DNA of 52,085 nt, filler included, from Jimgerdemannia flammicorona (GCA_003990765.1; 2 parts of 2 records of this genome joined end to end with filler, not necessarily neighbours in it); one strand, 5' to 3'; counted from the whole stretch's first letter, positions 1,306 to 50,731 are shown. The notes: a model not told the origin generated them from the sequence alone. Numbers and translations are program-made.

Positions 1306-2394
1306 ATGACCACTGAGATCTACAACTGTATCCATGCTGACATTTGGAATGCTATTGTCAACCGAGCTACACCCCCTCTGCCCCTCATGAATATCCATAG
1401 CCTAGCACCCCTCTACTTTGTGGAAGTCCGATGGAATGCTCTGAACATACTTAGCAAGACCCACCGAATCGGACAAATCTCAAGCTACTACCAGATCGGC
1501 CACCTCATGGTCGAACACTACTATGATACAGACATTACCCAGATGTCTCAACACTAGAAGCTCATCGCCTGCAAATATCGAGAACTTTTCTATGAGTATA
1601 GCACCTTTATTCTCCATCTCCGAGTTACTACCAGTGAAATGGTTACTACCCTGTCCTATGGCCAAATCGATGACATGATACAGGAACTCAACCAGAAGTA
1701 CCTCAAGTACATCGAAACCACAGACAGAACCTTCCCACACCCCAATGATCACATCCTGCAAATGCCCCAAGTTAGATATGCCATGAAAGACATCTACGAT
1801 ATAATCCACTTTGATGAAGATAAAGCAAAAGACAATGATCCCTCTGATACTGACATGACCTCAAGCCAAGGATCTCTGCCAACCCTGATCACTCTGCCAA
1901 CCTTGCCAATGAACTTACAATAGTTCATAACAATATATGAGACTTATTGGGACAATAACCACTAGCACGAATACTAACCCACATTCACCCCCAATTACTT
2001 CAACTATAATGAAGAGACCAGAGAACACAACCTGTACCTTCAGACAACCCTCGAGATCAAACCAACCACTCCACTACCCGAGTATGAGCAATATGAACCA
2101 CAGCTACCAGCTTACTATAACTCTGCGACTCATAGTACTGTAACCTACAGAAGATATGCAGACAGTGAATCCGACAAAAGTGAAAATGATGCACCCCTCC
2201 TTCACCCACCAATATCTTATCCAGCATATGAGACTGATGATGTCATCTTGTAGGACAGAGATGAAGTTCCAATATATTATTACCTCAGCAAATAAGGAGA
2301 AGTAATCCATGAACTACTCTTCTTAGACAACTACTTCATCAGAGATGATGCAATCGATGGTGATATCATCGAAGACTACCCAGACAGTGCCTAA
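1306..2394 (+). pseudogene. LTR(U3)-encoded accessory protein, ~362 codons, disrupted by C>T-type stops
   Basis: One reading frame from ATG 1306 (MTTEIYN...) to TAA 2394 (...DYPDSA). Most stops are sense codons in the 3' LTR copy. One TAG (1963-1965) is shared by both LTRs. Confidence 0.8.
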
Positions 2395-2583
2395 ACCCAT
2401 AAATAGCCTAGCAGTCATAGTATAGTTAGATTAGTATTGTATGACATAACTGTGAACTGACTCAGTAGTCAGACGATCTCTTGACATGTCAGATCACACT
2501 TATACTACGTGACTGCATTCTGACTCAGCAAGGTACTTAGTACTATATCCATATCTAGCATAGTCCAGATAGCCCCTCACTAG

Positions 2584-2711
2584 TATAAATACCCCCCCCC
2601 CAGACCTCAGAATCTTAGACTCGAACATACAAGAACATTCCTGAATACTTCCCCACAATATCTCCTCACATAACTACTCCTAGTATAGCAATATCATAAA
2701 TAGCAAATAAA
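2584..2711 (+). promoter_or_regulatory. LTR TATA box (TATAAAT) and polyadenylation signal (AATAAA)
   Basis: TATAAAT at 2584-2590 before a C-run, and AATAAA at 2706-2711. Both are conserved in all four A/B LTR copies that cover this region. Confidence 0.65.
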
Positions 2712-3070
2712 CCTATTCAATAATCCACAACCCACTCTTAAGTAAATCCACTCCCTGTTAGGTCCTACTCCTAACCCTGTCACGAAATTTCCATTGGGTA
2801 TTGTCTGCAGCGATACGCCAATTCAACTAAGCTGGTCTTAGTTTCTTGAACTTTCTGAAATACGGAAAATCCTGAACATCTAGAACTAGTCTGAAAAAAG
2901 ACTTTGGTTGAGATGTCAACCTGATCTTGAAATCAATAAGTGTAGAGGATGTATTCTATATGAAATTGATCTTGACCATAAGAAAACAGTCTTCCAGAAT
3001 ATCCAGAACCTCCAGAAAACCCTTTCAGAACTACGTAATGGTTACCCTAAAAAGCAACCCTCTTACAACT

Positions 3071-3082
3071 TGGTAGCAGTAG
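3071..3082 (+). promoter_or_regulatory. Primer-binding site, initiator tRNA-Met-like
   Basis: TGGTAGCAGTAG 3 nt after the LTR end. TGGTAGCAG is complementary to the ...CUGCUACCA 3' end typical of eukaryotic tRNAiMet. Confidence 0.75.
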
Positions 3083-5094
3083 TTTACAATTCAATTCCAC
3101 TTCAAGACACTTCCTTATCCTGCTACAAACCCTTCTGAGAATTCCTATAAGTTAGTATAAAGCCCAACCTCTGAACTGGAATTTATCCTGAACTATCTGA
3201 CAATCTGGAGAGAATTGAACCTGATGTATAAGGACAATTTGACCTCCACACTTGCAACAAGTGGGACAAACTTCATTTTAAGAAAGAAGTACTCCAGTTA
3301 AACCAGCACATAGGCGTAACCCTATTCACTGAACTCCTTGCACTACACCCAGCAAGTCATGATGAAGAAGGTCTTATTGAAGCCTTCTTTACTCTTCTCA
3401 ACAAAAGTTTTGTCAGCTCCACAAATCTGAGCGACCTAGGACAACCAGCAGCAGTCTTTCTAGCCTTAGTTCCTTACGAAGCCTAAGCCTCTGTAGCCAA
3501 GTAGCTCAACTCTACCAACTTTCATTGTACCAGGACCAAGACCACATTATACTACCGATTCCAGAATAGCAAGACCCACTATATTCTTAAAGAAGAAGCA
3601 AGAGAAACCCTTCATCAACTACCTGACCCCAAACCTGAAGCAGGCCCTGCTACAGCCCTACCTGAATCTGAAACCAATACCAAATCTGAACTTGACTTTG
3701 AATTAAGTCCATCTGAAATCAGATATACAACTGATTCTATCTACTTTGACACTGAGCAAATCCAATTACACAGGGACCAAACCAAAGAAGAGAAGGAGTA
3801 TCTCAGTGAATTCGATCCCAGATATACCACTGAAGAAGAAGTACCTCCATCAGGACAGAATACACCTACTCAGCAACAAACAGCTATCAATCAAGCCCTT
3901 ACTCCAGATCCTCAACTACTACTCCAGCAACTTACACAGACCCAAAGAACCCCATCACACTCTGCACCAGTACCTCAAGTAGTACCTGTAACACCACTAC
4001 CAGTAGTCCAACCACCTCCAGTAAACAACATGGCAAACCAACAGATTCTTGACCTCACAGCCCAGGTAGCCATAATGGCAGCAACCATTACTGCCTTAGC
4101 TGAACAGACCTGACCTACCAAAAATCTGAGCCTACCTACCTTCAATAGTACTGCACAAGAAGTCCAAAACTTCATTAGTATGGTTGATACCAACTTCGAA
4201 GCCAATCAATAGACCAATAAGTGAGTTGCTGACCGCATTCTGACAAACAATCAAGACCACACTCTGGAACAACTCTTTGCTACCACTACAGCCTATGTCT
4301 ACTAAGTTGTTACATTCTTCCGAGGACCTGCTGAAGAATGGTAGCGAACCCTTCCTGAAAAACCCCTCACATAGGATACCCAACCTGCAGTAGTTGCCCA
4401 GAATGCAACAAACAATACCCCAGGATATGGAGCCCATCCTGTAGCCCCTGGACTCAAATAACTCATAATTGCTCAATACCACAGCAAAACCATGATTGCT
4501 GAATCTTGAGTAAAACTCTGCAACCTCAAATTTGATATATATGGCAAAGAAGAATTCGAAACCTTTTGTACAAAACTCGAGTCACTCCTGAACACTGTTG
4601 GCCTAGGATATATCGCCAATAATGAAGCACAAAATGGTACAAGAGCAGACCATTTATTTGATGCCCTACCTGAATGACTTACTAGAAAAATCTGAGAGCA
4701 AGGCCACTCAGTTGGTTGTGATCATCAATAATAGTGCCTGGCAAGAATCAAGATCATGGTCAAGCGAATCCTAACAGCTGGACCAATTCTGCCCTGAAGA
4801 CAATTTAATAACAAGGAAAGGACTTGGACCAAGAAAGAAGAACCCAAGCATGAAGCATCCCGAGCTCCCTCCACATCCACCTCTTAGACACCCAGAAATC
4901 ACGAACCCACCCAGCCAAGTACCTTCAAGAAACTTACTGAAGGCAAAAGGAATGAATTTCGAAGAAGTGGAGCATGTTTCTATTGCCGAAAGACAGGACA
5001 TATGGCCAGTGCCTGCCCTAACTGAAAACTCTGAACAGCAACAAGAGCAACTGTTACCACTCTGCACCACCTCAACAATCTGACCACCAGAACA

Positions 5095-5505
5095 CTGGAC
5101 TTTGTCAAGTTAAGACAAACTGCTAAGGCCCCAACCAAAGGAAGTTAAAAAGCAGCTGGATACAACCTGTATGCAGCCGAAGAAGCTACAGTTTCCAACC
5201 GAGAAGTCAAACAAGTCTATACAGGAATCAGTATCCAAATCCCTGAAGGACATGTTGGAAGAATATGCTGTTGCAGTAGCCTAGCGTTAAAAGGACTCTC
5301 AGTAGAAGGAGGAGTCATTGACGAGGATTACACAGGCGAAATTATTGTTCTCATCTGAAACCACAGTTGGACACCCTTCAAGATCCCTATTGGCTTCTGC
5401 ATCACCCAGATTCTATTCAAAAAAATCGAGTCAACTCTGATAGTCAAGAAAGTCCCTGAATTACTGCCCACCATCCAAGGATCCAAAGGATTTGGCTCAT
5501 CAAAC
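5095..5505 (+). pseudogene. dut: dUTPase domain between gag and protease (element A)
   Basis: AAGYNLY (AAGYDLY in B), TGISIQIP, SSLALKG, GGVIDEDYTGEI and GSKGFGSS match trimeric dUTPase motifs. Confidence 0.92.
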
Positions 5506-8500
5506 AAGGCCCCAGCCCAATCTACCATGAGTAAAGAAGAACAATTCTATAAGAAGATCGAAGATGGATATGTACCAAGTGGTCGATGCCCTCATGACAT
5601 TGGAATGTACTCTTCCCAAATGATTGATGATTGCTTCTCTTGTATCAATGAACTGGCACAAAGAAGAACCAATAGAAGAAAAGCTCAAACAACTGAAATC
5701 AACACTATTGGATCAGACAAACTGCTCACCCTTAAGGCTTTTGTCAATGGAGCACCTGTTAAGATTATGATAGACAGTGGTGCCTCAGGCAACTTCATCA
5801 ATGAAGAGACAGCCAATAGACTCAAGGTCTTCACCTCTCCAGTACAGCAAACTCAAGCAGTTGCTACAGCTGATGAAACCTCACATGTTATTAGCAAAGA
5901 AGTCCGCAATCTACCCTTCCGAATTGGCGACTACCAAGTATATATTACCCTCCAAATTGTACCACTTCTTGATAATGAAATCATCCTTGAGACTCAATGG
6001 TTAAAACAAGAGAACCCCATAATTGATTGGGTAAACCATTCCCTGACCAACAAGAAATGATGCCACAACTTCAAACTATAAGGTGAAAAGGACCCACTCA
6101 ACTCTAGTGACCCTGGACCAAAGATCACCTATATCAATAAGCTACAACTTAAGAAATTGGCCAAGAAATGCCCTCTCTTCGCCATCTCCATCTGTCCATC
6201 CAAAGGAGAATCTGAGAACTCTGAAGAAGACTTTTCCAAAGTTGACAGCCATATCAGACCACTACTCCAGAAATTCCGAGACATATTCCCAAAGAAGCTC
6301 CCAAAAGGCCTACCTCCCAAATGAGCAGTAGACCATACCATCAAGACTATCCCAGATGCCAAACCAGCCTTCAAGTCAATCTACCACATGTCTCCAAGAG
6401 AAATTAATGTACTCAAGAAGGAAATCAATGAACTCCTAGAACAAGGATTCATCAGACCCAGTGTATCACCCTATGGTGCACCAGTCCTCTTCGTTGTCAA
6501 GAAAGGAGGAGACCTATGAATATGCATTAACTACCATGATCTCAATGAACAGACCATCAAGAACTGTTGCCCACTACCAAGGATCGATGAAATATTCGAT
6601 AGACTTACCAACCCACAATTCATGAGCTCTTTTAACCTGCAAAATAGTTACTAGCAAATTGCCATGAAAGAAGAAGATATCTACAAGACAGCTTTCCAAA
6701 CTCGCTATAGACACTTTGAGTTCCTAGTTATGCCCTTTGGCTTAACTAATGCTCCAGCAACCTTCCAGACACTGATGAATACCATTCTACATCCATACCT
6801 AGACAAATTTGTTGTTGTCTATATTGATGACATCCTAGTCTTCAGCAAAACTCTGGAGGAACATCTTGAACATCTTGAATTAGTACTACTAAAACTCCGA
6901 GAAAACCGACTCTTTGCAAAACTCAGCAAGTACAAATTTCTCCTGAAAGAAATTCAATTCCTTAGATACATTGTCACTCCAAATGGAATTAAAGTGGACT
7001 CTAGCAAAATCTCTGCAATCAAGGATTGGCCCAGACCCAAGAAGCTGAAAGACCTCCAGTCATTTCTGGGATTAGCAAACTATTACAGGCGATTTGTTGC
7101 CAACTTTGCTAAAATCACTACCACCCTCACCCAAATGACCAAGCACAGCAAGAAAACAAGAACAACCCTGGACTATGAAACAAGAGAAAGACTTCAACAA
7201 TCTTGTAACTTGGAGACCTGAACAAGATACCACCTTTCAAGCACTGAAAGATGCCCTGATAACCACACCAGTACTTCAAGTGGCAAACCCTGCCCTACCA
7301 TATGAAGTCACTACTGATGCCTCTGACCTAGCTCTTGGAGCAGTGCTCATGCAAGAAGGACACCCAGTGGCCTATCACTCCCACAAGTTCAATGATGCCG
7401 AAATCAACTACGCAACTCATGAGAAGGAAATGCTAGCCATTGTAGACACTCTGATCAAATAGCAACCATATCTAGAAGGAGCACACTTCACTGTATTGAC
7501 TGACCACAAGTCATTAGTCAACATCAAGACACAGGCTACCCTTTCCTGAAAGCAAGCCAGATGGATGAAAGTTCTCACCAACTTTGACTACGAAATCCAG
7601 TACTGCCCTGGCAAGGAAAATATTGTTGCCAATGCAATCTCCAGACCACCAATCGAAGAGGTTATCCAAACTCTGACCTTGGTTACCAACACTATCATGG
7701 AACAAATCATTACAGCATGTATTGATGATAAGGAAGCTCAAGCACTCCGAGAAATCCTGAACAATGATGATGCTGACAAGTATACCTGGTACAACTAATA
7801 CCAACTCAAGGACAATACTATCTACTATAAGGATAGACTGTATGTTCCAAACAACCGAGACCTCCAAAGGACTATCCTATTCGAATGTCATGATACACCT
7901 ATAGCTGGACATTTAGAATTTGATAAATGTTATGAAGTTATCTCCCAAAACTTCTATTGGCCCCATATGGCAGATCAGCTCAAAACCTACATCACTTCCT
8001 GTAATGTCTGCCAATGAAACAAGTCCTCAACACTAGCAAAACCTGGCTTACTCCACCCTATCCCAGTACCATCTGCAAATTGGGAACAAATCTCTATGGA
8101 CTTCATTGTACAACTACCCCAAACCAAGAATGGGAAAGATGCAATTGTTGTCTTTGTGGACTATCTCAGCAAACAAGCCCACTTTGTGCCTACTACCACT
8201 ACTGCAACAGCACCAGACATAGCCACACTCTTGTTTGACAATATCTTCCGCTATCATAGTCTTTCTAAGATCATTGTTAGTGACTGAGATCCGAAATTCA
8301 CCAGCCACTTTTGGAAAGTCCTCCATGCACACCTTGGAACAAAACTTGCACTATCCACAGCCTTTCACCCAGAAACTGATGGTCAAACTGAAAGAATGAA
8401 CCGAACTCTAGAACAAATGCTAAGGAACTATATTTCCTACAGACAAGATGACTGGTATGAACACCTCACCACAGTTGAGTTTGCCTATAACAATAGCAAG

Positions 8501-8854
8501 CAAGCCTCTCTTGGAATGACCCCATTCTTTACCAATACTGAACAAAATCCAAACACCCCTTTGACACTTATCTGAACTACTGAAGAACTCTCTACAGTCG
8601 AAGCTATTGAAGAATTCTTACTCCAAATGTGCAATTTAAGCCAAATTACCATTGAGAATTTATTGCGAGCTCAAGAACAACAGTCACAGTATGTTAACCA
8701 ATACCGCCAAGATGAAACCTTCGATATTGGAGAAAAAGTCCTACTAGATATCAGAGGATACCTAGTTGACATTTTTTTTTTTTATTTTTTTTATAGTCAC
8801 TTGGACTCCGCCTTTATTACCAGTCTATGAATAATTATACATCAATCCGACCCA

Positions 8855-11800
8855 CTATCCAATCCCCACCGGGGGGCCCCTCCCTACTTCCTCACGAATG
8901 AAAATCACCCTTTCACCAATGACCCCCACTCTCCCCCCACTTTGCTCACAGATTTTCTCCACCAAGCGGTGCCTCCGACCACCCCGCATCCCCCAACCCA
9001 GCCACCAGCCTGTTAAGGTATCTTCCATAAGCCTATGCCATCGCAGCAGCCGGTCCCCCAAGCTCTGCCTCCTCCCATCCTCAAAGACAAATAGCCAATG
9101 ACTGGCCAACCCCACCCAAATAGCCAAAGCCCAACCTAAAGTGAGCCACTCCTTCTCTATTCCCCCTACCAATCTAACCCTCAGGTCCTCCCATCGCCCT
9201 TGTACTCCATCACTCCTACCCTGTACCCCTAAGTGATCCCCAATTGTCCGCCAAAAGTCCCCCAACACCTCGCACTCTCCTAGCCAATGTTCTGGCATCT
9301 GTACATAACCTCCCTCCTGCCCCACATTATGGCACTCCTCACAGTTGAAGCAACCCCCTACAACCAGGTGCCCTGAGCGAAAATTGAGCATAACATTCCT
9401 CTGCAGCATGCGCCATCAGACCACCCAGTACTTTGGTGGCAGCTATGCTCTCACCGCAGCACTCCAGGTCCAAACACTATACCAGTTCCACTCTTTGCCA
9501 ATTCCAACTCCTTGCCAACCGCTAGGCCACAGATCCTGGCCTGGTCCCCTCTGGCATTCCATTCCATCACCAATGTCGAACTCAGCTAAAGGAGCACCAC
9601 CCAGCAGTATACAGTCCCATTTCCACATTGCTGGGCCCCAATCCTCTTCACCTTCATTCCCTTGCCAACGAATACCAATGCGATGCACTCCTTCTGCAAT
9701 TCCCCACCAAAATCCTCTATATTGTAGTTGGGCAGTATTCTGAAGCCCAACCAAGGAGAGGAGATCACCGGTTGAGCCCCTTGGCAATGTCCGCCTCTCC
9801 CATATCTTTTGTAACAGCGGAACCCATCCACCTCCTCTCAACTCCACTGCCCTCTTTAGCCACCATGCTCTCAAGCAGTGTAACCGTTTTGGGAAGTCAA
9901 CCAGCCCAAGACCACCTCTCACCACTGGCAGGGACAAGGTTTCCCAACTAATCTGACTCTGCCTGCCAGCCCAAATCCATCCTTTTGCTGCCTTCATCAA
10001 TCTCTTCACTACCCAGGCTGGGAAGTCCAGATGATATGCCAGATACCACAACTTTGGCAGCCAGTAGACATTCAAAACTGAGACCCGCCCTGCTAGGGAA
10101 AAATATCTACCCCCCTAACTCCACAGAGCCTCCTCCCAGATTCCAATCCTCTGCTCCCACCAAAGCTTGGGCAGAACTGACCCATAGACTGACAAGTAGA
10201 TACCTAAGTACCACACTGCTTCACCGGTGGGGACAATTGTTCCTATAACCTCCCCTCCCACCAGGCCATTACCAAGCATCATCGTCTCACACTTATGCCA
10301 ATTCAGCTTAGCTCCAGAATGCTCCTCATACCACTCCACAGTCCTCTTGAGCTCCTCAACATCAGCAATCGAACCCAAGCCCACCACCATGTCGTCAGCA
10401 AAGGCCCCAACCTTCCATCCTATGCCAAAGATAGAGAGCCCCACTATCCTCCACCTAATCCGGTCCATAAGTGGTTCCAGGGAAAGAGTATACAAAATGG
10501 GGGACAGTGGATCCCCCTGGGGCATGCCCCTTCCCAAGGAGAACGCTACTCCTCTATGTCCATTACACATGAGTGCAGCCCTACTCCCTTCCAGTAGGCT
10601 GACCATTATCAACCGGAATTGATGCAGTACCCCCATTCTATCCAGAACTTTTGCCAGCCAGACTCTCTGCACCCGGTCGTAAGCCTTCTCCTGGTCCAAG
10701 AAAACTAGACACCCATCTAGCCCACATGCTCTCACCCCTTCAATGATGCCATGCACCCAGGCGGTGCCATCCCTGATGAGCCGACCACTCACAAATCCCC
10801 TCTGCTCCACACTCACGACTTGCTGGGCCACCTTCTGTAATCTTGCCACCACCACCTTGGTCACCAACTTTCTGTCCATATCTAGCAGCATTATCGGCCG
10901 CCAGTTCTTCCAATCCTCCCGCCCTCCTTTGTTTTTGTAGAGCAGCGTCACCAGCCCAAGGTCCTGCTCCCCCACCCATCTACCCGTCTGTAGAATAAGG
11001 TCACACAACGCTGTCATCTCTCCCATCACCTCTGGGACTTCAACCATTCGCTTCCAAAAGTCCCAGGGCAGCCCATCCTCTCCAGGTGCCATACCGGACG
11101 TTGTCGCGGCAAGAACCTGGTGGATCTCACCTTCCTGTACAGGCATCACCAGGTCTCCTAGCCCTTCAACTTGTGGTAGGTGCCAATCCTCCAATGTATG
11201 TTCAATTGTAGTGGCATCCGCCCCACCTTCCTCCTCACTCCACAATCCACTCCATCTCTCCTTCAGCGATCCAAGAATGTCCTGTACACCATGCACCAGT
11301 ACACCATCAGAGTCCAAGACCCCTTCCCACCATTGCTGGACCCGCCTTGCCCTAAGGGCCCTTGAAAGAAGCTTGGAAGGCCTCTCACCTTCCTCCAGAT
11401 CCTGCCAATGAAGCCATGCTGCCAAGCTTTGTACCCTTGCCTCTTTCTCCTCCCGCAGCACTTGTTGAAGTTCCCCAACCTCCATTTTTGCCCTCAGTAA
11501 CCTCCAATCTTCTTCTCTCTCCACTATCATCAGCTGTGCCCACTCCTCCAGGAGCCTTGTCAATTGAGCAGAGGCCCAGCGCACCTTTTGTTTTTGCTGC
11601 TTCCCTGCCTCCTTGCCAGCCTCCTTCCAGTAAATCCTGGCCATTTCCTTCATCCTCATCCATCGAGTCCCAACTGCAGCCCCTTCCTGCCTCCAGGTCT
11701 CTACTCTCAGCTAAATGTCTTTAGCCCACTCATCCCACTGGGTCTTATCATCTAACAAAGAGGAATTGAGGTGCCAATGTCCAGGCCTATCCCCACTTCC

Positions 11801-12511
11801 CCCAAAGCACCCCTGTCCCAAAAGCCCCCAGTGATCCGACCATGGACACCATTCCACCTCCAATGATTTCCAAACATCTAGTCCCCAGCAGCAAGCTGTC
11901 AAAATCCAATCGATCCTAGTCCCCAGACCCCCTGCCCAATGTGTATAAATCCTCCTACTCCCCCAGCACTCCCTTCCAGTATCCAATAGTGCACTCAGCC
12001 CCTCGACTTCCTCCCATGCCACCAGCCCTCCACTCCTGCCCTCAGCATCTCGTCCTCTATCCGATCTATCCATCAGTATATCTCTAACCATATTGAAATC
12101 TCCCCCTAGCACATCCACCCCTGCCTCCGCAAGTAACCCACTCTCCAGTAGTCCCTTCACCCAATCGACTCTCTCACCCCATACCGCAGGGTAGTAGCAA
12201 GAACCAACTGTAACTGGTTCCCAGCCTACCCAAATCCACTCTCCCCAGATCAGTCTCTCCCCCCAGCACTGCACATTCTGTATCTTCCCTCTGCCTCTCC
12301 TAACCAAAATCCCAACCTTGCCCCTCCAAATCGCTACACCTCCCCATTCCTTCGTCCATTCTAACCTATCAGAGTCATCTTCGCACCGGACATCCTGCAA
12401 AAGGAAGAGATCGGCCTCCAATCCCTTTATCCAAGTAAAAATGTTCCTACGTCGAGAAGCACCCCATAACCCATTCACGTTCAAAGAGAAAATGTTTGTT
12501 GTATTGTTCAT
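8855..12511 (-). pseudogene. LINE ORF2: AP endonuclease, reverse transcriptase and C-terminal Cys/His motif, with a few in-frame stops
   Basis: SLNVNGL, GGDFN, TRIDWI and SDH (APE); PGEDGLP, WRPIMLL, LDQEKAYDRV, PQGDPLSP and AFADD (RT); CFNC...EHWLGEC. All four ORF-track segments are in one frame. The true stop may be 8825. Confidence 0.95.
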
Positions 12512-12544
12512 ATTGATGATATATGTGATGTCGCCAATCTGTCT

Positions 12545-15254: not shown

Positions 15255-15267
15255 AAGAAGGGGAGAG
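15255..15267 (+). promoter_or_regulatory. Polypurine tract of element A
   Basis: AAGAAGGGGAGAG immediately before the 3' LTR. Identical in element B at about 22915-22927. Confidence 0.9.
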
Positions 15268-15268
15268 T

Positions 15269-25984: not shown

Positions 25985-25993
25985 TCTAAAAAA

Positions 25994-40480: not shown

Positions 40481-40639
40481 ACCTGTTGAGATTTGAGATT
40501 TGCAACCCGATCATCTTCAGTGACTTATGTTTTGCATAGACATCATCAGGTAGATGTCGTCAATTAGTGTGTCATCAATTGGAATGCATAAAAGCATGTA
40601 ACTTAGATATCAATAAAGCTTGCTCTCTTTTCTCCAGTA

Positions 40640-41906: not shown

Positions 41907-41910
41907 ATAT

Positions 41911-43221
41911 TGTAACAAACCACAAAACGTAGTAATCTCAAAATCCAACCAGGTGATATGAACATTAGCCTAGCATAGCAACCAGCAACTATTGCTGTGG
42001 AAAATGTATAAATAACTCAGATAGCTAAAAGGAAACACCCTGACAGTGGCTATCACCCTGACAGTGGCTGTTACCCTGACAGTGGCTGTCACTCTGAGAG
42101 TGGATGTCACCTCATAAATAGTATTCTATAGTTAGCCAGATAGCAACCAGATAGCAACCACAATGCATAAATTATCCCAAAGACAAAAGTGAATAAACCT
42201 CAGTTCGAAAGTTGAATACAAACCAAAGCAAAAGTCAATTGTCTGGTACACTTAGGAGAAATGCCTGCCAAAAGCCACTTGATCCAGGAAGAATTGTAAC
42301 ACTTAGGAGATATGCCTGCCAATGAGCCACTGCCAAGAAGTTGTGAGCTTGGTTCTCTTCTCTTCCACTCTGGTCCACTTTCTGATACAAAGAATGAGTT
42401 TGTTTTGGTTCACTTGCCAGATAAGCCTGAAGTTTGCTGCCTAAGTTCAAGAAAGAACTTCGCTGCCATTTCCCAGTTGAAGCCACCAATTCAGGAAGAA
42501 TCTGTGCCATCCGAGTTATTTCCCAGAAGCCCACCGATTCCGGAGAATCCATGTCATCTGCCATTTTTAAGTTATCTGTATTCCCAGAAGAGCCCAACTC
42601 AGAAGAACTCGTGCCATCCGAGTATTATTCCCAGAGAGACCGAGTCATCCGTGACATCCAAGTTATTTATTATTCCCAGTGAGCCCAAGAAGAACCCACT
42701 GCCAGTATAATTCTCAGTAAGAAGAACCTACACTGTCCTCCATTCCCAGTGAGCCAAATCGAGTTATCTGCTAAATTATTAGAATGCCCCGCATAAGGAA
42801 CCCATCACACACACAAGGAGATTGTCATGCTATACAGAAATCGCCCGCCACCCAAGAAGGAAACCACTAAATTGCCAGATCGTCACAAATATGAAACTCG
42901 CGCTATACAAGAGATTGTCACGCCAGAAATCACATACTTTTGAAGATTGCCTCGCTATACAAAATTGTGGCATTCTCAGTTGACCCAAGAAGGAAAAGAT
43001 GTACAAATCGTCACTATACTCAGAGAATCATCCTAATTAGGAAATCAACATACAGATCACTTGTGGATATTCAGCTTTTGACTATTATACTACTAAACAC
43101 CAAGGACCTCAGGAATCTTAGAATATTTTGTTGCTTTTTTGACAAAGTAACTGGGGGCTCAAGCCAAACTACATCAACCCCCAACCTTGAAATTTGCCTC
43201 CATTGAGCCAGGCACATTATA
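41911..43221 (+). repeat. Element E 5' LTR
   Basis: Direct repeat of 50771-52053. Confidence 0.95.
42036..42107 (+). repeat. 4 x 18-bp palindromic tandem array (CACCCTGACAGTGGCTGT); 5 units at 50896-50985
   Basis: Read directly. Adjacent units form TGACAG-TGG-CTGTCA palindromes. Confidence 0.92.
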
Positions 43222-43223
43222 TT

Positions 43224-43240
43224 TGGGGGCTCAACTGGAA
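43224..43240 (+). promoter_or_regulatory. Primer-binding site, tRNA-Pro-like
   Basis: TGGGGGCTCAACTGGAA 2 nt after the LTR. TGGGGGCTC matches the complement of the tRNA-Pro 3' end. Confidence 0.75.
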
Positions 43241-43778
43241 AGATTTCAAATTGACGTGACTTTCCAGCTCACAAGAATCCACAGTCAAACTGGATACATT
43301 CGATACAACACCAACCTCTGCCACTACAAGAGAACCAGTTATCACCAGCATTTGGACAGGAAGAGAAGTAATCACATCAAGACTTGCCAACTACCCAGCA
43401 TCAGAAGGATCCCAATCAGAACCAGAAGGCAGTACAGCCCGAAATCCCCAACCAGATCAACCAGACAATTTAGGCAGTTCTGCTAGAAACTTTGAAGAAC
43501 TTGCACAAGAACTAGAAGATCTTATCACACAGACCCGAGACCTCACAGCCAGACACCCCACACCAGTTCCACCAATCTCACCAATAGAACCTTTACCACA
43601 ACCTCTTGCAGAGTTAGAAGTAGCTCCTACAAAAATACCTAGGCTTATTCCACTTTGTCCAAGGTCCAGAACACCATCCTCAAGATATCCAAGCACCTCT
43701 ATCTCCAGTGATAGTTCAGAAAGCGAATCAGAATCAGGATCTGAACCCGAACCAGAATCAGAAGAAAGTGATGATGAA

Positions 43779-46700
43779 ATGGCCACCTCATTGCCAACCT
43801 TTGCAGGATACCTGGAAGAAGACCCCAGAGAGTTCCTTGATGGAATTGAAGGAATCGCAGCCTTGAGGAATCTCTCAGATGAAAGAAAAATTGCCATTTA
43901 CAAGACTTAGCTCAGGGAACCAGCCTGAGGAATTTTCCACTGAATAGCAAACAACCCAGATTCAGAACTCACAAGACAGATATAAGTAGCAATGTCTTAT
44001 GAGCTAGAATATGAGGCCATGGTCCACTGGCTCATTGAAAAGTGTGCAGGAAATGAAACCCACTACAAGGCTCAGGAATCCATCATGGGGATGAAGATGA
44101 ATCTTGGAGAATCACCCAGAGTCTTCTTCACAAGAATCCAGAAGAGGATGCATACTGCTGGGTTCAATGCCACCAATCAGGACATTATCGGTCCAATGAT
44201 CTTCATGAATGGAATTCCCCCAAACATTGCCCAGCATGTCTGCACCCTAGGCATTAGAAGGTCTGAAGAGTAAGTAGATGCAGCCCAAGGATTCTTTGAT
44301 GTCAGACAAGAAACTACCTGGAGCGATCATGACAGAAAAGAAGAAAAAGAAGACATTCTGGTCAAAGCTCTACAAGGACTCCTTCAAGGACAAGAAAGAT
44401 CCAAAGAAAGAAGGCCAGCCAAGGAAGAAAAGAAGGACAGAAATGAAATCCAAGACCTCAGCTCCAAGTTGGACCAATTGGTTGGACAGATTGAAAAACT
44501 CACTATATGCAAAAATTGGAGCTACCAAGACAATAGAGGATACCTACCACAGAGGAGCCAAGGTTATCCACCCAGAGATAACAGGGGTTATCAGCAAGAA
44601 GAAATAAGATATCCTGTCCAAGACAGAGCCCAAGTCCAATGCTTCCACTGTGGACAATTTGGACACTATGCCACTGAATGTGACAACAAAAGAAGTGACT
44701 GAAGGGACTCAGAACCACCAAACTGAAGGAATGATACTCAGTACAAGAAGACTGAAGCCCATCCTGTAGAAGATTTTGAGGAAGCAAGTAACAGCGAAGA
44801 CTATAGTGACCTAGACTTGTACCCTACCAAGGTCACCTTCTGAAAAACAGTTTACCCAGCAGAGAAAAGGAAGAGACCTGTGGGAAGGCCATCCAGGAAC
44901 ATCAGCAGAAGAATTATTCAAGAGGAGGATGAAGAACATGAAGAGGAGCAGGTAGAAATACCCCACCGAACCCCCTCACCTTTTGTTCCCAAGACAAATG
45001 AGTTACCACCAGAAGATGAAGAAATGGAACAAGAAGAATGGGAACCTGCTGCTCCAAAGTCCAAAAAGAAGTACACTCCAAAGACCATGCCTAGAGACAT
45101 TTACAATGAAGCCTGGCAGAAGATTCAAGAGGCCAAGATGGAAGTTCCCCTCCTGCAGTTCCTGTAACTGACACCAGCTGGAGTCCAAAACAAATTGCTG
45201 AGAACCACCAGGTCTAGCACTGGCCAAGTCCCAATCCCACAGCAAGAATCAGTTCCCATCCCTGTTCAGGCAGCTGAAAGACATGTCAGCATCTACCTAT
45301 ATGGAGATATTGGAGGACAAAAGGCGAAGATCCTCATAGACACAGGAGCAGCTATCTGTGTTATTGCCAAACAGTTCCTGGACACCCTTCAATGGCACAT
45401 TGATAGACCATCCAACCTCAGCATCATAGTAGCAGATGGAGCCTGAACTCAACCTCTTGGAGAAGTATGAAATATCACCATCTCCCTTGGACACATTCAG
45501 TTCTCCATCCCTAAAGCTGTTGTCACTGAAGCTGTCACCTATGACATAATTCTTGGCACCAACTGGATGAAAGAAATGAATGCAGTTGTTGACATTGGCC
45601 AACAAGTACTTAAGTTCAATTACCGAGGCAAGAAATATAGAGTTAAGGTGACCAGCTATGAGCAATCAAAGAAGAAGAAGAAGGTCACTATTCAGGAAGA
45701 ATATACCTGCAGTAAAGAATCTACCACAGAAGAAGAGGAAGAATCTGAAGATGGAAATGATCCCAGACTCAATCTCCGAATTAACCTGGTGGATGACAGA
45801 CCAGAAGACAATGTGTGGGCTAAGAACACCATCCCCATCACCATTGGAGCTATTGCAGGAGAAGCCAAAGGATGCCCTATCTGCCTCAAGAGATACAAGT
45901 GTCCTGAGCACTCCTCCAAGATCATGGGAACAAGGAAATCGCCTGGCACAGCCTGCCCAGAGTGCAGAAGGAAGAAGAGGAAATGCAGACATGTTCCAGA
46001 AACACCTGCAACCGAAGCTGCGGAAGTATAAGCAATTTGGTATCAAGAATCATCTGAGGAAGAAGAAACTTCTGATCAAGAAGTCTCTGAACAAGAAGCA
46101 CCTGAAGAAGAAGAAGTTCCTGAACTCATTTCCTGGGATAATCCTCATTGGACACCACCTGAGGACAATGACCCTTGGAACATGGAAGAAGGACCTAGTA
46201 CAATCACTATTATCTCAAAGAAAGAAACTCACCAAGAGAAGGCTTTTTGGCTTGGAAGGTATCCACACCAAATGGTCTTCCACTCTCCCCGAGACTACTG
46301 CTATCAGTGTCATCTGTTGGATCAACAAGAAAGATAGAGACCCCAGAGACCAGAACTCCCAACTACACTTGCACAGTCAACCACCTTTCAAGAAGTTACT
46401 ACAAGATTACAAAGTTGATTTAGAGGACAAGGCTTCTTCACCCGAACAGAAATATACCCCTTGTCTACCCTTCCCCCAACTTATGATCAAGATGGGTACC
46501 GATTCCCAAGGCAACAAGAGATCAATAGCCAGGAACACCATTTCTGAGCAATGGGATATTGCAACCATGGGAGACACTCTGACTGCCAAGACTGCAGATA
46601 TCAGAAGATTCACCTTAGTCATGATGTTGCAGTCCATACTTTAAAGAGAGGAGACAACAAAGGCCAGATCCAAAAAAGCCAAACCAGGAAGCCAGAAAGA

Positions 46701-47755
46701 AGAGTCCTTAAGATCTATAATTTGGGAGAAGACATCCTAGCTCTCATCAGACATGCAACCTACCAAGGATGTGCAGAAGATACCACCAACTTTATAGAAG
46801 CCCTAGACCCTACAGGAAGAAGGGGAATCAACTATCTCCAAGACCCCTCTACTGGAGCCAGATGGCCACACCTCAACCTCAGAGCCTGAGACTCTCTACT
46901 AGTAGAGCCTCAGCTCTAGGATAGCCCAAACTCAGCAAGGATATTGCCCAGTATGCTCTGCTATATCCCAAGGCCAAACCCCCGACCAAAGCTCACCCAG
47001 AAGATGTAGGGTATGATCTTTACAGTCTGGAGGATGAATCTATCAAACCTGGAAAGACCTTCATGATCAGAACTGGATTAGCCATGCAGCCACCTCAGGT
47101 CCAACTGACCTCAAGGTCTGGACTTTCCAGACAAGGAATAACTGTGGAAGGAGGAACCATTGACCCAGGATACATAGGTGAGATCAAGGTCATCCTATAC
47201 AACAGCAGTACAAAATGACACCAAATCATTAGAGGACAGAAAATTGCCCAAGCAGTCTTCATGAAGATCAAAACTCCACGATTGGAAGAAGTCTCTGAAC
47301 TAGTTGAAGGAACAAGACAAGCTAAAGGATTTGGAAGTTCAGACAGAAAGGAAGTATATCTCCTTCAAGTCAACTACCTCAAAAGGAATATTCCCCAGCA
47401 AGTATACTGGCAACCAGTCAGATTGCACAAGAATCTTATCCTGGAGCCTGGAGAACAAACTACCTTCGAAATCTTTGCACCACCCGACCCCAGGAATCTT
47501 TTCTTTGAATCCAAGGAAGATATCCCACACCTGGATATAGAAGGACACACATTCCCTAACAAGATGAACCCAGTACACTCCCAAGCAACCAACCAAAGTT
47601 GGGAGACCATCATCCTGCTGAAAGGAGCCATCATAGGACATCTGGTACCTTTTCTCAACCGAACTCATAGAGAAGTTTATGAACTAAACCTATCGGGAAA
47701 TGGCAAAAGGTCTCAGAAGAAAGGAAAGGCCCCTCTGCGACCCAGGAGACAGTGA
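43779..47755 (+). pseudogene. Element E ORF1: gag - protease - Cys/His-rich insert - dUTPase - dUTPase-like remnant
   Basis: In-frame segments start at 43992, 44469, 44880, 45195, 45567 and 46551. CFHCGQFGHYATEC, DTGA and DVGYDLY motifs. One 1-bp deletion near 46888 relative to C. Confidence 0.9.
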
Positions 47756-49167
47756 AGCCTTCCACCAACATTGGAGAAAAATTGACACCTCAACAACAAC
47801 AACAACTAGCAGAACTTCTCAACAAATATCAAGATATCTTCACCACTGATTATGGCAACCTGCTATACAATCCATCATATCACTATAGCATAAATACAGA
47901 AAATGCAACACCCATTTGGCAGAAACCCTATAGAATACCCCACCACTTAAAAACATTCGAAAGGGAGCACATTCAAGAACTCTTAGACAATGGGGTCATC
48001 TGACCCTCTACCAGCCCCTGGGCCCGCCCTATACTTATTGTACCAAAGAAAGGAGGATGGAGACTTTGCATGGATTACAGGAAACTCAATTTAGTCATCA
48101 AAAAGGATGCCTATCCTCAGCCCAGAATCAATGACCTCTTGGATCAGTTATAAGATGCCAGATACTTCAGCAGTATAGACCTCTTTGCAGGATTCCATGA
48201 GATCTCCATGGACCCCAAGGACATTCAAAAGACAGCCTTTCTTACTCTAGGAAAACTGTTTGAATACCTCCAAATGCCCTTTGGACTCTGCAATGCACCC
48301 CCCACCTTTCAGAGGATGATGAATTCAGTCTATGCCCCCTTGATCCACCACTACCTAATTGTATACATGGATGATTCCAACATCTATTCAGCAAATTTCG
48401 AAGAACACCTGTACTACCTAGAGGAATTCTTCAAGCTCACCCACAAGAACCACTTGAGGCTGAATGCAAAGAAATGCTACTTTGGGAAACAGAAACTCGA
48501 ATTCCTTAGATTCATAGTTTCAAAAGAAGGAACCCATGCAGACCCAAAGAAAACCAAGAAGATCAACAATTGGCCAGTACTCAAAACTCTGAAGGAAACA
48601 CTATCATTCCTGATGCTAGTATTCTACTACAGAAGGTTTATCAAAGATTTTGCCCAAATCGCTGCCCCAATCCGAATCCTTCTCAAGAAAGAAGTACTAT
48701 TCAAATGGACAGAAATACAAGAAAAAGCCTTCAGAGAACTCAAGAACCACATGACTATGGCACTGATCCTTGTGCACCCCAATCTATAGAAGCCATTCAT
48801 CTTGTATACAGATGCTTCTAAAGAAGGCCTTGGGGCAGTTCTGGCCCAAGAAGGACCCAATTGACAGTACCATGTGATAGCTTATGCAAGCAGAGCTATC
48901 AATCAGCAGCAGATGAACTATGGTAGCACCAAACTGGAATGTCTTGCAGTCATATAGGCAGTCACCCTGTTTAAGCATTATCTCATTGGAAAAAGGTTCA
49001 CCCTGATCACAGATCATGCAGCCCTCAAATGGCTATTCAACCGCAAGGAACCCACTGGAATTCTAGCCTGCTGGATTCTTATTCTTCAGGATTACAAAAT
49101 CACCATCATCCACAAAGCAGGGAAAGCCCACAATAATGTTGATGCACTTTCCCACCAGCCCCAATGA
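47695..49167 (+). pseudogene. Element E RT-RNase H, in the -1 frame relative to ORF1
   Basis: QKPYRIP, MPFGLCNAPPTFQ, YMDD, YTDASKEGLGAVL, NVDALS, then stop TGA at 49165-49167. Confidence 0.92.
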
Positions 49168-50228
49168 ACTAGAAGAAGGGTGTCCCGAGGAACTATACTC
49201 TAAAGGAAGCTCCTCAGACTATCAAGAAACAAGAAGATCTCATCCAACAAGAACATCAGAAAGCCCACCAAGGACAGACAAACACAGAAGACAAGATTTG
49301 AAAACAATATCAACATTGGCCCCACCTCAGAACCCAAGTCTGAGACATCATCCAGAAATGTGACACCTGCCAGAAGTACCAAGGAAAGAAGAACTATCAA
49401 GCCCCTCTGCAACTGATTCCCCCACCCACTCACATCTTTCAAAGATAGAGAGTAGACATAATTGGACCTCTACTAGTTACATCAAGAAGAAACAAATACA
49501 TCCTTGTATTTGTAGAACATCTGACCAAGTGGCCTGAGGCTTTCCCAATGGAAATCACAGATGCCTTAACCATTGTAGGCCTTCTCTATAGACTCACACT
49601 CAGATATGGATCCCCAGAAGAACTTATCTCTGACTGAGGCACAGAATTCATCAACAACATAATTACAAGTTATGCTCGAATTCACAAGATCCACCTCAAA
49701 CAAACCACATAATACCACCTTCAGACCAATGGCATGACAGAAAGAATGAATCAGACCATCAAGAAAGGACTTGTCCAAGTTGATCCTATCAATTGGGACC
49801 TCTGCTTACCTGAGATCCTGTGGGAAATTCAAAACACCCCTGCTGCTTCTACTAAACAAAAGTCATTCGAAATGATGTTTGCCAAGAAAATCAGAACTGC
49901 TGACCATGAGAACCTCAGAAAGCTTCTTAAAAAAGGAGATCAGCTGTGAAATGAAGCCCGAATTCAGATTATCAAGGCCCAGAAAAGACAAAAGAAGTAT
50001 TACAACCAGAAACAGAAGAATCAGAAGATCAAGATTGGCAATCAAGTCCTGGTTTGAAGAAGTATGATAGAAACAAACTTTGCTACTAAACTGGAACTGA
50101 AATGGGAAAGACTATACCTTGTACACAACATCAGAGGAACTAGCATCAATATAAGAAGCATGGATGGACATGTCTTGAGAACTCCAGTCCACATCAATTG
50201 CCTCAAGATATACCTGCACAAACCATGA
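49164..50228 (+). pseudogene. Element E integrase (HHCC, DDE core, C-terminal SH3-like part), in its own frame
   Basis: EHQKAHQG...CDTC, VDIIGPL, ELISD*GTEF, NGMTERMNQTIK and VHINCLKIY. ATG 49164 overlaps the RT-RH stop. Confidence 0.9.
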
Positions 50229-50731
50229 CTCAGAGGATAGATCAACGCCTCCAGACCCTTATCCTTAGCTCTTTCCAAGCTCTGCCAATTCCCCTGCCCC
50301 AGTTTTGCCAACTTGAAGGAACTCCTATACAATTGATCCAGAAGCATCAAGAGAACCTTACCATTGTCCAGAGGTTACTTCAGATCCACCATCTACAAGC
50401 CTTCTACAACATTGGACAGTTATTGACAGAACAACCTTACATAAGGAGCCCAGCCAGAATTACTCTCAGAGAAGCAAGAACTGCCAAATGAATCTACACC
50501 CTATATAATCGAAATGTTGGAGCCCTGGTGCAGGCTCACTTCTATCTCAATGATATCCATCAGATAAATGAGACCATCTTCCAGAGTATTCTTCAACAAG
50601 TGGACATCCTGTTTCCTGAAGAACAAGTAGAGGTTTCAGAGCCAGAATGGAGTGACCCTGGTACAGACAATGAAGATGATAGAACAGGCATAGATGCAGA
50701 GGCAGCTTATGCTTATTGGGATGATGACTGA
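50225..50731 (+). pseudogene. Element E accessory ORF (168 codons, one probable CGA>TGA stop), homologous to the element A LTR ORF
   Basis: ATG overlaps the integrase stop (ATGA). 50198-50491 and 50528-50731 are in frame. Acidic C-terminus. Confidence 0.8.

Follow-up and report, generated by a model that had tools for sequence, protein, structure and literature searches.

A probable shared accessory gene at the RNA 3′ end of two diverged Ty3/Gypsy retrotransposons in Jimgerdemannia flammicorona

Retroviral genes in or overlapping U3 include MMTV sag, HIV nef and foamy-virus tas/bet, and foamy viruses drive such genes from a second, internal promoter. Among retrotransposons, additional ORFs located 3′ of pol but ahead of the 3′ LTR are a class already in print, as are ORF3s common to several retroelement lineages (PMC7264820; PMC5408684, as far as its available text goes). 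Sense additional ORFs in this position in Ty3/Gypsy elements, such as Athila and Bagy2, are known as aORF-3S (PMC7264820), and in bdelloid rotifers ORF3 types are common to unrelated retroelement lineages, according to the available part of PMC5408684. An 'add. ORF, unknown function', which may or may not be the family described here, is drawn for some fungal chromoviruses in the available part of PMC2864245.

We analyzed a stretch of J. flammicorona DNA of 52,085 nucleotides (GCA_003990765.1; two parts of two records joined with filler), hereafter the window. It contains a complete chromovirus, element A (1019-17328), with 2.05-kb LTRs, a 5-bp target duplication, a polypurine tract (PPT) and a primer-binding site (PBS). 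The features of element A and of its deleted relative A2 are as follows.

1019..3067, plus strand: 5′ LTR of element A, with TG...CA ends (self-BLAST)
1131..1168, plus strand: two TGAGTCA motifs (1131-1137 and 1162-1168) within a direct repeat of ~23 nt that precedes the A ORF in U3
1229..1236, plus strand: TATATATA, 70 nt upstream of the ATG at 1306; possible promoter of the ORF in the LTR
1306..2394, plus strand: A-type accessory ORF, 5′-LTR copy; 362 codons, 6 internal stops
2584..2711, plus strand: TATAAA (2584-2589) and AATAAA (2706-2711), downstream of the A ORF; presumably the promoter and poly(A) signal of the genomic RNA
3071..3082, plus strand: PBS of element A, TGGTAGCAGTAG, beginning TGGTAG (sequence read)
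3083..15058, plus strand: gag-dUTPase-PR-RT-RNaseH-integrase-SH3-chromodomain (Pfam matches), interrupted by a nested LINE
8790..14670, ends approximate, minus strand: nested non-LTR retrotransposon; GC 51-57%, long open frames
15255..15267, plus strand: PPT of element A, AAGAAGGGGAGAG, upstream of the ORF and separated from the 3′ LTR by a single T (15268)
15269..17328, plus strand: 3′ LTR of element A (self-BLAST; ends and flanks read in sequence)
15556..16653, plus strand: A-type accessory ORF, 3′-LTR copy; 365 codons, 4 internal stops
22929..24416, plus strand: 3′ LTR of A2, a copy with an internal deletion; 1.49-kb variant (self-comparison of the window)

The LTRs of element A are 91.8% identical (1019-3071 vs 15269-17332, self-BLAST of the window) and are flanked by ATTTC at 1014-1018 and 17329-17333. 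Its PR-RT-RNaseH-INT order and C-terminal chromodomain are those of a Ty3/Gypsy chromovirus, with Pfam E-values of 2.3e-28 for dUTPase, 1.1e-25 for RVT_1 and 2.1e-31 for RT_RNaseH, and, in the 3′ part of pol, 6e-18 for Integrase_H2C2, 7.4e-13 for SH3_Tf2-1 and 6.6e-14 for Chromo. The nested element matched RVT_1 (5.3e-31; 10115-11659, minus strand) and Exo_endo_phos (6.7e-9; 11711-12511, minus strand).

An earlier, sequence-only reading of this DNA had placed an accessory gene inside the LTR of element A, and the repeat (1019-3067 and 15269-17328), its TG...CA ends and ATTTC flanks, the PPT and the PBS bear this out. The A-type frame (~363 codons) is wholly within the U3 part of both LTRs, with the U3/R boundary inferred from motifs: the ORF (1306-2394) begins after the LTR start at 1019 and ends before the TATAAA (2584) and AATAAA (2706), and because these presumed genomic-RNA signals come downstream of it, we place it in U3. 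A matching pair occurs in the 3′ LTR at 16843 and 16965. An in-frame ATG is also present at 1249. At seven of the nine internal stop positions, a single C>T or G>A transition separates the stop from the sense codon in the sister LTR; of the other two, one is a TAG shared by both copies (W in relative P0011) and one needs two changes. The A2 and A1 LTRs have in common only the first ~31 nt and the last 733 nt, so that the A2 variant lacks the ORF body and retains its final codons. Since such a variant exists, the accessory gene is dispensable in cis.

Element E (41911-52053) carries the second gene, with the following features.

41911..43221, plus strand: 5′ LTR of element E (self-BLAST)
43224..43232, plus strand: PBS of element E, TGGGGGCTC (sequence read)
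43233..50228, plus strand: gag(CCHC)-PR-dUTPase-RT-RNaseH-integrase, no chromodomain (Pfam matches)
50225..50228, plus strand: ATGA, ORF start codon overlapping the pol stop (sequence read)
50225..50731, plus strand: E-type accessory ORF of 168 codons with a single internal stop, a TGA at a position that is R in relatives
50759..50770, plus strand: PPT-like AGTAGGGGCTGA, downstream of the ORF
50771..52053, plus strand: 3′ LTR of element E (self-BLAST), starting 40 nt after the end of the E ORF

Translation of the three frames (1306-2394, 15556-16653 and 50225-50731) returned the peptides that the sequence-only reading had compared, with their motifs in place, and the location of the E gene after integrase, between the pol stop and the 3′ LTR, also held. 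Judged from the substitutions, both A and E frames are broken in the window only by RIP-like transitions. The two carriers were correctly described as different. Between their RT domains, identity is 40% over 228 aa; the chromodomain is found in A only; and in the Pfam domain orders dUTPase precedes PR in A and follows it in E. The PBS sequences also differ (TGGTAG... vs TGGGGGCTC), and we take them to be of the iMet and Pro tRNA types, respectively.

In the RNA, the gene occupies the same place in both elements, at the 3′ end downstream of pol. Its sole positional difference is relative to the plus-strand priming site: in E the PPT follows the gene, which is therefore internal, whereas in A the PPT precedes the gene, which is therefore copied into U3 of both LTRs. 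The E ORF, in gag-pol orientation, occupies the interval from pol to the 3′ LTR, as sense additional ORFs do. In DNA, the A ORF (15556-16653) does not, being within the LTR past the PPT, but it is still 3′ of pol in the RNA.

Intact relatives of both types occur in public metagenome data. A metagenome protein search yielded seven E-type relatives at 53-86% identity, and about five further E-type entries were found (P0014-P0016, plus P0019-P0021 from the cluster of P0004). The A-type ORF, present in both LTRs, has two outside relatives only, both intact: P0013 (83% identity, N-terminal 128 aa) and P0011 (62% identity, C-terminal 247 aa). At three metagenome loci (L001-L003), the E-type ORF directly follows integrase. 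NG86 dN/dS among E-type copies was 0.08-0.20 in four of six pairs, those with unsaturated dS, compared with 0.11-0.22 for the 3′-terminal 200 codons of pol at these loci. Differences between the window and L001 numbered 41, 33 and 88 at the first, second and third codon positions (167 of each), and the third-position excess was seen in all six pairs of E-type copies. The accessory gene is therefore protein-coding, and in the E lineage it is under purifying selection, with dN/dS well below 1 and in the range of integrase.

The E gene is probably expressed by stop-restart, to judge from its sequence. The pol stop is the TGA at 50226-50228, and the overlapping ATGA is found in three of the four DNA copies (window, L001 and L002); the fourth, the decayed L003, has ATAA, which retains the pol stop and has lost the start codon. 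The gene would be translated from genomic RNA by termination-reinitiation at this conserved ATGA, and its product would be made at a low level, fixed relative to Pol. RNAalifold applied upstream of the ATGA gave −11 kcal/mol with compensatory change in 2 of 21 pairs, for four sequences only and in a pseudoknot-free model. We know of no report of stop-restart at the pol-ORF3 junction of an LTR retrotransposon, and a non-exhaustive literature search gave none. According to the available text of PMC10275272, stop-restart at AUGA or UAAUG is documented in the victorivirus HvV190S, the hypovirus CHV1, caliciviruses, influenza B and the SART1 retrotransposon. Element E resembles these systems in its stop/start overlap after a long ORF near the RNA 3′ end, and the precedents include fungal hosts and one retrotransposon; they need an upstream RNA element (PMC10275272, same portion), however, and no conserved one was found here among four sequences.

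For element A, termination-reinitiation is impossible because the ATG lies 500 nt past the pol stop (TAG, 15056-15058), with five ATGs between. The A gene is probably expressed from a separate promoter inside U3, as suggested by TATATATA and the TGAGTCA repeats; the latter are kept in both LTRs and are presumably AP-1/Gcn4-type sites. Its transcript would end at the LTR's own AATAAA. If this reading is true, each LTR is a small self-contained gene.

The protein is predicted to have an all-alpha domain of ~130 residues, with a strongly acidic, aromatic-studded tail behind it, and the A protein has an additional Y/D/E/P-rich extension of ~140 residues. The helices expected from the sequence-only reading are thus recovered by prediction and the acidic tails by charge counts: net charge was +6 (P0005), +3 (P0007) and +2 (P0018) over the first 130 residues, and −18, −19 and −6, respectively, over the remainder. 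No TM segment was found in six proteins (maximum Kyte-Doolittle 19-residue mean 0.37-1.36) and no Pfam env family was matched, in agreement with the view that the protein is not env-like. Pfam gave nothing for the three window proteins (E up to 1) or for seven members (E up to 5), a sequence search of the PDB gave no match better than E 0.064, and no enzymatic motif was found.

Sequence comparisons indicate that the A and E proteins are probably homologous, consistent with the earlier claim of one gene family, without a Pfam name, in two deeply diverged Gypsy lineages. They are colinear from Met1 to a common YWD(D/N)D motif, and the L-INS-i alignment includes ILFPEE/IIYFDED and the terminal YWDDD/YWDND. 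Identity is only about 20%, and hhalign of the E against the A alignment gave a probability of 5.4% (E 0.0072, 47 columns), so the ORFs could be independent, with a likeness due to chance, shared composition and helical periodicity. AlphaFold models (pLDDT 49.5 and 46.0; all-alpha, low confidence) are too poor for a fold comparison, and VIA-align with them returned generic helical matches (best Z 8.1 and 7.2). BLASTP of A-type against E-type proteins gave E-values of 1e-4 to 4e-3, and the Smith-Waterman scores of A against six E members were reached by 0, 6, 2, 63, 0 and 4 of 2000 shuffles; one pair, P0013 and P0007, was nonsignificant (63/2000, E 0.12). With the E-only HMM, shuffled sequences reached scores as high as 18.6 bits, and HMMER E-values were ~20-fold optimistic when calibrated on shuffles. 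Nevertheless, the 11.4 bits of the intact A protein P0013 on this HMM were matched by only 5 of 20000 shuffles (reversed sequence, −0.7), in an alignment that keeps register from the N-terminus onward. The shuffle tests by both methods, like the low dN/dS of the E lineage, thus spoke for the sequence-only reading. Furthermore, in a blind six-frame scan of the 52 kb, A and E were reciprocal best non-self matches: the E-only HMM picked the A frame (1375-1596) at 10.0 bits (next 1.9), and the A-only HMM the E frame (50279-50431) at 7.4 bits (next 0.4). A third protein, P0018, matches both halves. It was selected by a profile already combining A and E (E 1.8e-4 among 1.84 billion representatives) and is significant library-wide with that joint profile only; it scored 16.0 bits on the E-only and 12.6 bits on the A-only HMM, each equaled by 0 of 10000 shuffles, and has TTE-Y-RIR-NAI in common with A and FAIG with E. 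With this match and the colinear motifs reaching the C-terminal YWD(D/N)D, we regard independent origin as unlikely. By sequence, three lineages are seen in the putative family, A-type, E-type and P0018-type, the last as a protein match only. The E frame could also extend integrase at its C-terminus, being reached through a ribosomal frameshift near the pol end and serving integration targeting in place of the chromodomain that E lacks and A has. In the window and in L003, it stays open for ~40 codons before the ATG and overlaps the end of integrase, and this stretch appears as N-terminal extensions in P0004, P0006 and P0014. In L001, however, it has a stop; the ATG sits exactly at the pol stop in three of the four DNA copies; five of the seven E-type relatives (P0005, P0007-P0010) and P0015 begin at that ATG; and the domain was fused to a longer pol-like protein in none of the 1.84 billion representatives. 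Moreover, A carries chromodomain and gene together. We consider such an extension very improbable.

For the shared accessory gene, we tentatively suggest a non-enzymatic regulator or adaptor as the most likely function, a possibility to be held loosely. Its helical domain would be the part that binds a component of the element or of the host, and its acidic, aromatic tail, acting like an acidic activation domain, would bring in host machinery; the element's own expression would thereby be raised or silencing countered. The nucleic-acid-binding, transactivating and anti-silencing roles raised by the sequence-only reading are likewise conjectural. The same family might handle RNA rather than regulate transcription, as a Rev/CERV-like export protein, packaging factor or particle chaperone. 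Such a role would fit the RNA 3′-end position and the proposed coupling to Pol translation, both suited to a cis-acting factor, as well as the basic N-domain of E-type proteins (+3 to +6), and the Ty3/Gypsy element Cer1 of C. elegans encodes a small novel protein, CERV, required for genomic-RNA export (available text of PMC10309623). The N-domain of A, at −2 to −8, lacks this basic charge, which weakens the idea of common nucleic-acid binding, and no RNA-binding motif or family was matched in Pfam; CERV is made from a spliced mRNA (PMC10309623, same portion). An RNA-handling role thus seems somewhat unlikely. A resemblance to the YhcG N-terminal domain, also raised by the sequence-only reading, did not extend beyond the Y-x-IG motif. 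The domain in question, DUF1016_N (PF17761), is the N-terminal domain of YhcG-like PDDEXK nucleases; it is helical, has aromatic-x-IG-x-x-(L/I) in common with the accessory family, and formed the first structural neighbor of the Atlas P0004 model, a cluster flagged 'under the bar' (TM 0.43 by query and 0.52 by that row; 102 residues aligned). Capture of a diverged bacterial or phage DUF1016_N by a retroelement is nevertheless extremely unlikely: the seven-member Pfam search gave zero matches, the two motif helices are spaced differently, by about 25 residues, and hhalign gave a probability of 0.5% against an alignment of 10 DUF1016_N sequences (E 0.12, 17 columns) and 0.7% against YhcG alone, aligned elsewhere. 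With both HMM and profile-profile comparison negative, we rejected this identity.

Overall, we give a somewhat better than even chance to the reading that both frames are copies of one Ty3/Gypsy accessory gene family at the RNA 3′ end, with the expression and function proposed here. Like the aORF-3S of Athila and Bagy2, the gene has the same place in the RNA, the same orientation, conservation across copies and no host homologue; the best-described aORF-3S are env-like with TM segments, whereas this protein has none, and an arrangement inside the LTR, as in A, is absent from that review (PMC7264820). CERV is comparable as a small, novel, non-enzymatic regulator beside gag and pol of an LTR retrotransposon; its role in genomic-RNA export is established, and the present family is likened to it by description only (available text of PMC10309623). 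The rotifer ORF3s, in the available part of their report, are env-like, GDSL lipase or DEDDy exonuclease proteins of recognizable families, whereas the family here matches nothing; the likeness lies in one extra gene type carried by deeply diverged, dUTPase-encoding LTR elements with a modular 3′ end (PMC5408684). The retroviral genes sag, nef and tas/bet belong to vertebrate retroviruses and have no sequence relation to the accessory family in the Pfam and PDB searches, and the U3 promoter of A, set beside the foamy-virus internal promoter, is proposed from motifs only. What A has in common with these genes is coding sequence in U3, which is hence duplicated in both LTRs.

Self-comparison and reading of the repeat ends showed that the window consists of decayed, nested retroelements, with the following features.

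Retroelement features of the window (basis in brackets)
1019-17328: element A1, a Ty3/Gypsy chromovirus, with LTRs at 1019-3067 and 15269-17328 that are 91.8% identical and have TG...CA ends (self-comparison, repeat ends)
Element A1: target duplication of 5 bp, ATTTC (repeat ends)
3071-3082: primer-binding site (PBS) of A1, TGGTAGCAGTAG (repeat ends)
15255-15267: polypurine tract (PPT) of A1, AAGAAGGGGAGAG (repeat ends)
About 8790-14670, minus strand: non-LTR retrotransposon nested in the A integrase (Pfam matches RVT_1 and Exo_endo_phos)
18434-19637 and 22929-24416: LTR-like repeats of A2, an internally deleted A copy (self-comparison)
26096-32131, minus strand: E2, another copy of E, represented by its 5' part (self-comparison)
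41911-52053: element E, another Gypsy element, with LTRs at 41911-43221 and 50771-52053 and PBS TGGGGGCTC (self-comparison, repeat ends)

A Pfam scan of read-through translations gave the gene order gag-dUTPase-PR-RT-RNaseH-integrase-SH3-chromodomain for element A and gag(CCHC)-PR-dUTPase-RT-RNaseH-integrase, without a chromodomain, for element E. The sequence-only reading had assigned the two to different Gypsy lineages with differing domain content, and both points held: the RT domains are 40% identical over 228 residues, the chromodomain occurs in A alone, and dUTPase lies before PR in A and after it in E.

Transitions accounted for all 158 differences between the paired LTRs of A1, all 59 between those of A2 and 99 of the 105 between those of E, and the base following a C/T difference was most often A (mostly CpA). 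This RIP-like pattern is the ground on which the host is called fungal. The stretches at 32000-38000 and 41000-42000 (GC 22-29%, CpG observed/expected 0.02-0.07, TpA/ApT 1.13-1.14) are probably heavily RIP-mutated relics. Between them, 38000-41000 (CpG observed/expected 1.11, GC 40-49%) may be unmutated host sequence; an ORF at 39083-39691 had no Pfam match. The nested non-LTR retrotransposon (GC 51-57%; long open frames of 514, 370, 266 and 228 aa; TpA/ApT 0.61) lacks the AT-rich decay of its surroundings and therefore looks younger than, or spared by, transition decay. The internal part of A2 (18434-24416) matches A1 only over 3071-6272, beyond which it resumes at the PPT. Position 18434 marks the truncation of the A2 5' repeat. 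In the 1.49-kb A2 LTR, ~730 unrelated bases take the place of the A1 promoter-plus-ORF segment (about 1050-2340); the terminal ORF codons and the stop are still present. In the E LTR, 50866-51075 holds two TATAAA boxes (50867 and 51044), with four 16-18 nt direct repeats (CCCTGACAGTGGCTGTCA, 50909-50985) in a run between them.

Both A1 LTRs contain an accessory ORF (1306-2394 and 15556-16653), and element E carries one of 168 codons (50225-50731). All three frames translated exactly as the sequence-only reading had given them, and their placement was likewise confirmed. The A ORF lies inside the LTR, starting 287 nt past its start; a TATAAA (2584) follows 190 nt and an AATAAA (2706) 312 nt beyond the end of the ORF, which thus sits in U3. 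The E ORF follows integrase, and 40 nt, including a PPT-like tract, separate its end from the 3' LTR. The internal stops of both ORFs are a result of decay. Seven of the nine stop positions in the A ORF are one transition away from a sense codon in the sister LTR; of the other two, one is a TAG common to both LTRs, where the A-type library protein P0011 has W, and one needs two changes. The single stop in the E ORF is a TGA where relatives carry R. A six-frame scan detected no further family member in the window, the A2 LTR, truncated E2 and AT-rich relics all scoring at most 3.8 bits. A gag origin of the ORF was rejected, as neither gag region was matched in that scan.

Intact relatives were retrieved by word-indexed searches. 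Seven E-type proteins (53-86% identity) and two A-type proteins, P0013 (83% over the N-terminal 128 aa) and P0011 (62% over the C-terminal 247 aa), were found, all on contigs of 0.7-2.3 kb. A metagenome scan with a 6-sequence alignment recovered three E-type DNA loci (L001, L002 and L003), and in all three the frame lies directly 3' of integrase. Viral contigs scanned with P0013 and P0018, a protein of a third lineage, yielded no locus. Third codon positions carry most of the differences between these loci and the window (for example, 41, 33 and 88 of 167 sites at the three positions). By the Nei-Gojobori method, dN/dS of the E-type frame was 0.08-0.20 in four of six pairs with unsaturated dS, agreeing with the protein family that the sequence-only reading had proposed, and it was 0.11-0.22 for the last 200 pol codons of the same loci. 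Because of the third-position excess and of dN/dS values near those of pol, we conclude that the E-type frame encodes a protein and has been kept by purifying selection. Evidence for coding by the A-type frame consists of its intact relatives.

L001 and L002 are nearly identical at the integrase end (dS 0.067, dN 0.015) but strongly diverged in the accessory ORF (dS 1.13, dN 0.22). The 3' module seems to be swapped between element lineages by recombination. The L002 ORF resembles the subtype of the library proteins P0007 and P0009, which has a LPAPEQTYIRNT insert.

The A and E ORFs are probably homologous. Pairwise BLASTP between the two types gave E-values of 1e-4 to 4e-3, except for a single pair (0.12). 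The claimed alignment also withstood shuffling: when P0013 was compared with six E members by Smith-Waterman, 0, 6, 2, 63, 0 and 4 of 2000 shuffles reached the score. The E-family HMM scored P0013 at 11.4 bits, with 5 of 20000 shuffles as high and the reversed sequence at -0.7, and the reciprocal A-HMM gave 5.8-12.4 bits against all seven E members; since nominal HMMER E-values were ~20-fold too good relative to shuffles, the empirical figure is quoted. The HMM match keeps register, residue 24 falling on profile position 23, and the full alignment is colinear, running through M-T-x-x-I at the start, PLP, aromatic-Y-x-IG, A-x-x-(R/K)-x-x-x-L-(Y/F), L-x-x-x-(Q/D)-I-x-x-M, ILFPEE / IIYFDED, an acidic stretch, and finally YWDDD (E C-terminus) or YWDND (A residue ~218). 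In a frame-blind scan of all six window frames with each single-family HMM, the best non-self match of the E-HMM was the A frame (10.0 bits; next 1.9), and that of the A-HMM was the E frame (7.4 bits; next 0.4). Against homology count the hhalign probability of 5.4% for the small A and E alignments, the retrieval of P0018 (below) by a mixed profile, and structure models of too low confidence for comparison.

A joint profile searched against 1.84 billion cluster representatives returned eight proteins: five E-type, P0013, P0017 and P0018. P0018 (171 aa, E 1.8e-4) was picked by a profile mixing A and E; the E-only HMM gave it 16.0 bits and the A-only HMM 12.6, with 0 of 10000 shuffles as high in each case, and it has TTE-x-x-Y-x-RIR-x-x-x-x-NAI in common with A and FAIG with E. 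P0017 (1143 aa, 12 repeats) matched profile positions 71-110 twelve times (E 5.6e-10) and is probably a repeat artefact; its repeat motif is like RRVGLLFMRSSTAIVRAAFSGW, and a similar stretch, RRVGLSIHNVFRRY, occurs in P0018.

None of the 10 family sequences scanned matched a Pfam family, and a PDB search by sequence gave no match (best E 0.064, unrelated proteins). No TM segment was found, consistent with the earlier view that the protein is not env-like. AlphaFold2 returned low-confidence all-alpha models for the E alignment (12 rows, pLDDT 49.5) and the A alignment (4 rows, pLDDT 46.0), each with 5-6 helices in similar order and too low in confidence for fold comparison. A VIA-align fold search against 48161 chains yielded generic helical hairpins and bundles only, with best Z scores (8.1 for E, 7.2 for A) that fall in the range given as background for models of this helical kind. 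Homodimer prediction for the E N-domain scored 0.00, which speaks neither for nor against a dimer. Feature matches (0.80 and 0.93, unnamed clusters) in Atlas, a protein-cluster resource with structural neighbours, were set aside as noise; both queries gave the same Closter_coat, Translat_reg and DUF6192. A loose resemblance to DUF1016_N, the N-terminal domain of YhcG, had been suggested from the Y-x-IG helix, and this lead was tested because Atlas also places a DUF1016_N cluster first for its model of the library protein P0004 (TM 0.43/0.52, under the Atlas bar). Comparison with a profile of E. coli K-12 YhcG and nine plasmid homologues gave a probability of 0.5% and E 0.12 over 17 columns, covering the Y-x-IG motif only, and the resemblance was not upheld.

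In the genomic RNA, the accessory gene lies downstream of pol in both elements. The PPT follows the gene in E, so the gene is internal; it precedes the gene in A, which puts a copy of the gene in each LTR. We infer that A and E differ here only in the position of the PPT relative to the gene. The E start codon and the pol stop share bases in an ATGA in three of four DNA copies, L003 reading ATAA. This ATGA is a signature of termination-reinitiation, which would be the probable route of ORF translation; fungal viruses and the SART1 retrotransposon are among the documented cases mentioned in PMC10275272. No conserved RNA element was found upstream of ATGA among the four sequences. The E ORF frame is open for ~40 codons upstream of its ATG (50100-50224), overlapping the integrase C-terminus, as it is in the homologous stretches of L003, P0004, P0006 and P0014; L001 has a stop there. 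This open frame may be accidental or may point to frameshifting, and fusion to integrase by frameshift is a minor rival reading.

Between the pol stop and the A ATG lie 500 nt and five other ATGs, which makes coupling to pol implausible. Upstream of the ORF, the A U3 contains two TGAGTCA motifs in direct repeat, a CA-rich leader and, 70 nt ahead of the ATG, TATATATA; both LTRs keep all of these. From these motifs, the region looks like a second promoter. The TGAGTCA pair lies in a ~23-nt direct repeat (1131-1168, 15381-15418), with two AAGCCACTGAAAT copies closer to the LTR start; together these repeats are possible enhancers of the A U3. Combined with the LTR AATAAA, the candidate promoter would make the A LTR a self-contained gene.

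The accessory protein is probably a non-enzymatic regulator or adaptor. Our leading, still tentative, guess is a regulator whose acidic, aromatic tail would act like an activation domain. An RNA-handling role, by analogy with CERV of Cer1 as outlined in PMC10309623, appears less likely than that. The N-domains of the E-type proteins and P0018 are net basic (+2 to +6), and that of A ranges from neutral to acidic. An acidic tail containing W/Y/F is common to all, its acidity having been noted for A and E in the sequence-only reading; A has an extra extension of ~140 residues, rich in Y/D/E/P and kept in P0011.

To our knowledge, a function has been established for few of the additional ORFs that LTR retrotransposons carry, and descriptions from fungi are scarce. 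Sense ORFs located 3' of pol and ahead of the 3' LTR are already in print (PMC7264820), fungal chromoviruses have been drawn with extra ORFs of unknown function (as in PMC2864245), and ORF3 types common to several retroelement lineages are among those described in PMC5408684. What is new is the accessory family itself, absent from Pfam and very rare (8 matches among 1.84 billion representatives, one judged spurious), along with its placement inside U3 in the A lineage and the conserved ATGA junction in the E lineage. A non-exhaustive literature search found no description of a U3-borne ORF or an ATGA junction in LTR retrotransposons. One family with clear purifying selection presents two genomic solutions for the same RNA position (U3, or post-integrase with ATGA overlap), a natural ORF-less LTR variant and signs of 3'-module exchange between lineages. 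It makes testable whether LTR retrotransposons outside animals encode their own expression regulators, as well as stop-restart at the pol to ORF3 junction and the LTR as an autonomous gene. Even if its function proves trivial, the family is a useful annotation. A bolder, rather unlikely reading is that the A LTR (TGAGTCA repeats, own TATA, 363-codon ORF, LTR poly(A) signal) is a complete small gene, and that every LTR, solo LTRs included, could go on supplying all elements of the family with a trans-acting factor. Taken with the E version, coupled by stop-restart, and with the P0018 lineage, it would be a fungal retrotransposon counterpart of retroviral regulatory genes such as tas or tax. The product would be a dedicated regulator whose acidic tail is of activation type, and a mere shift of the PPT would carry its gene into or out of the LTR.
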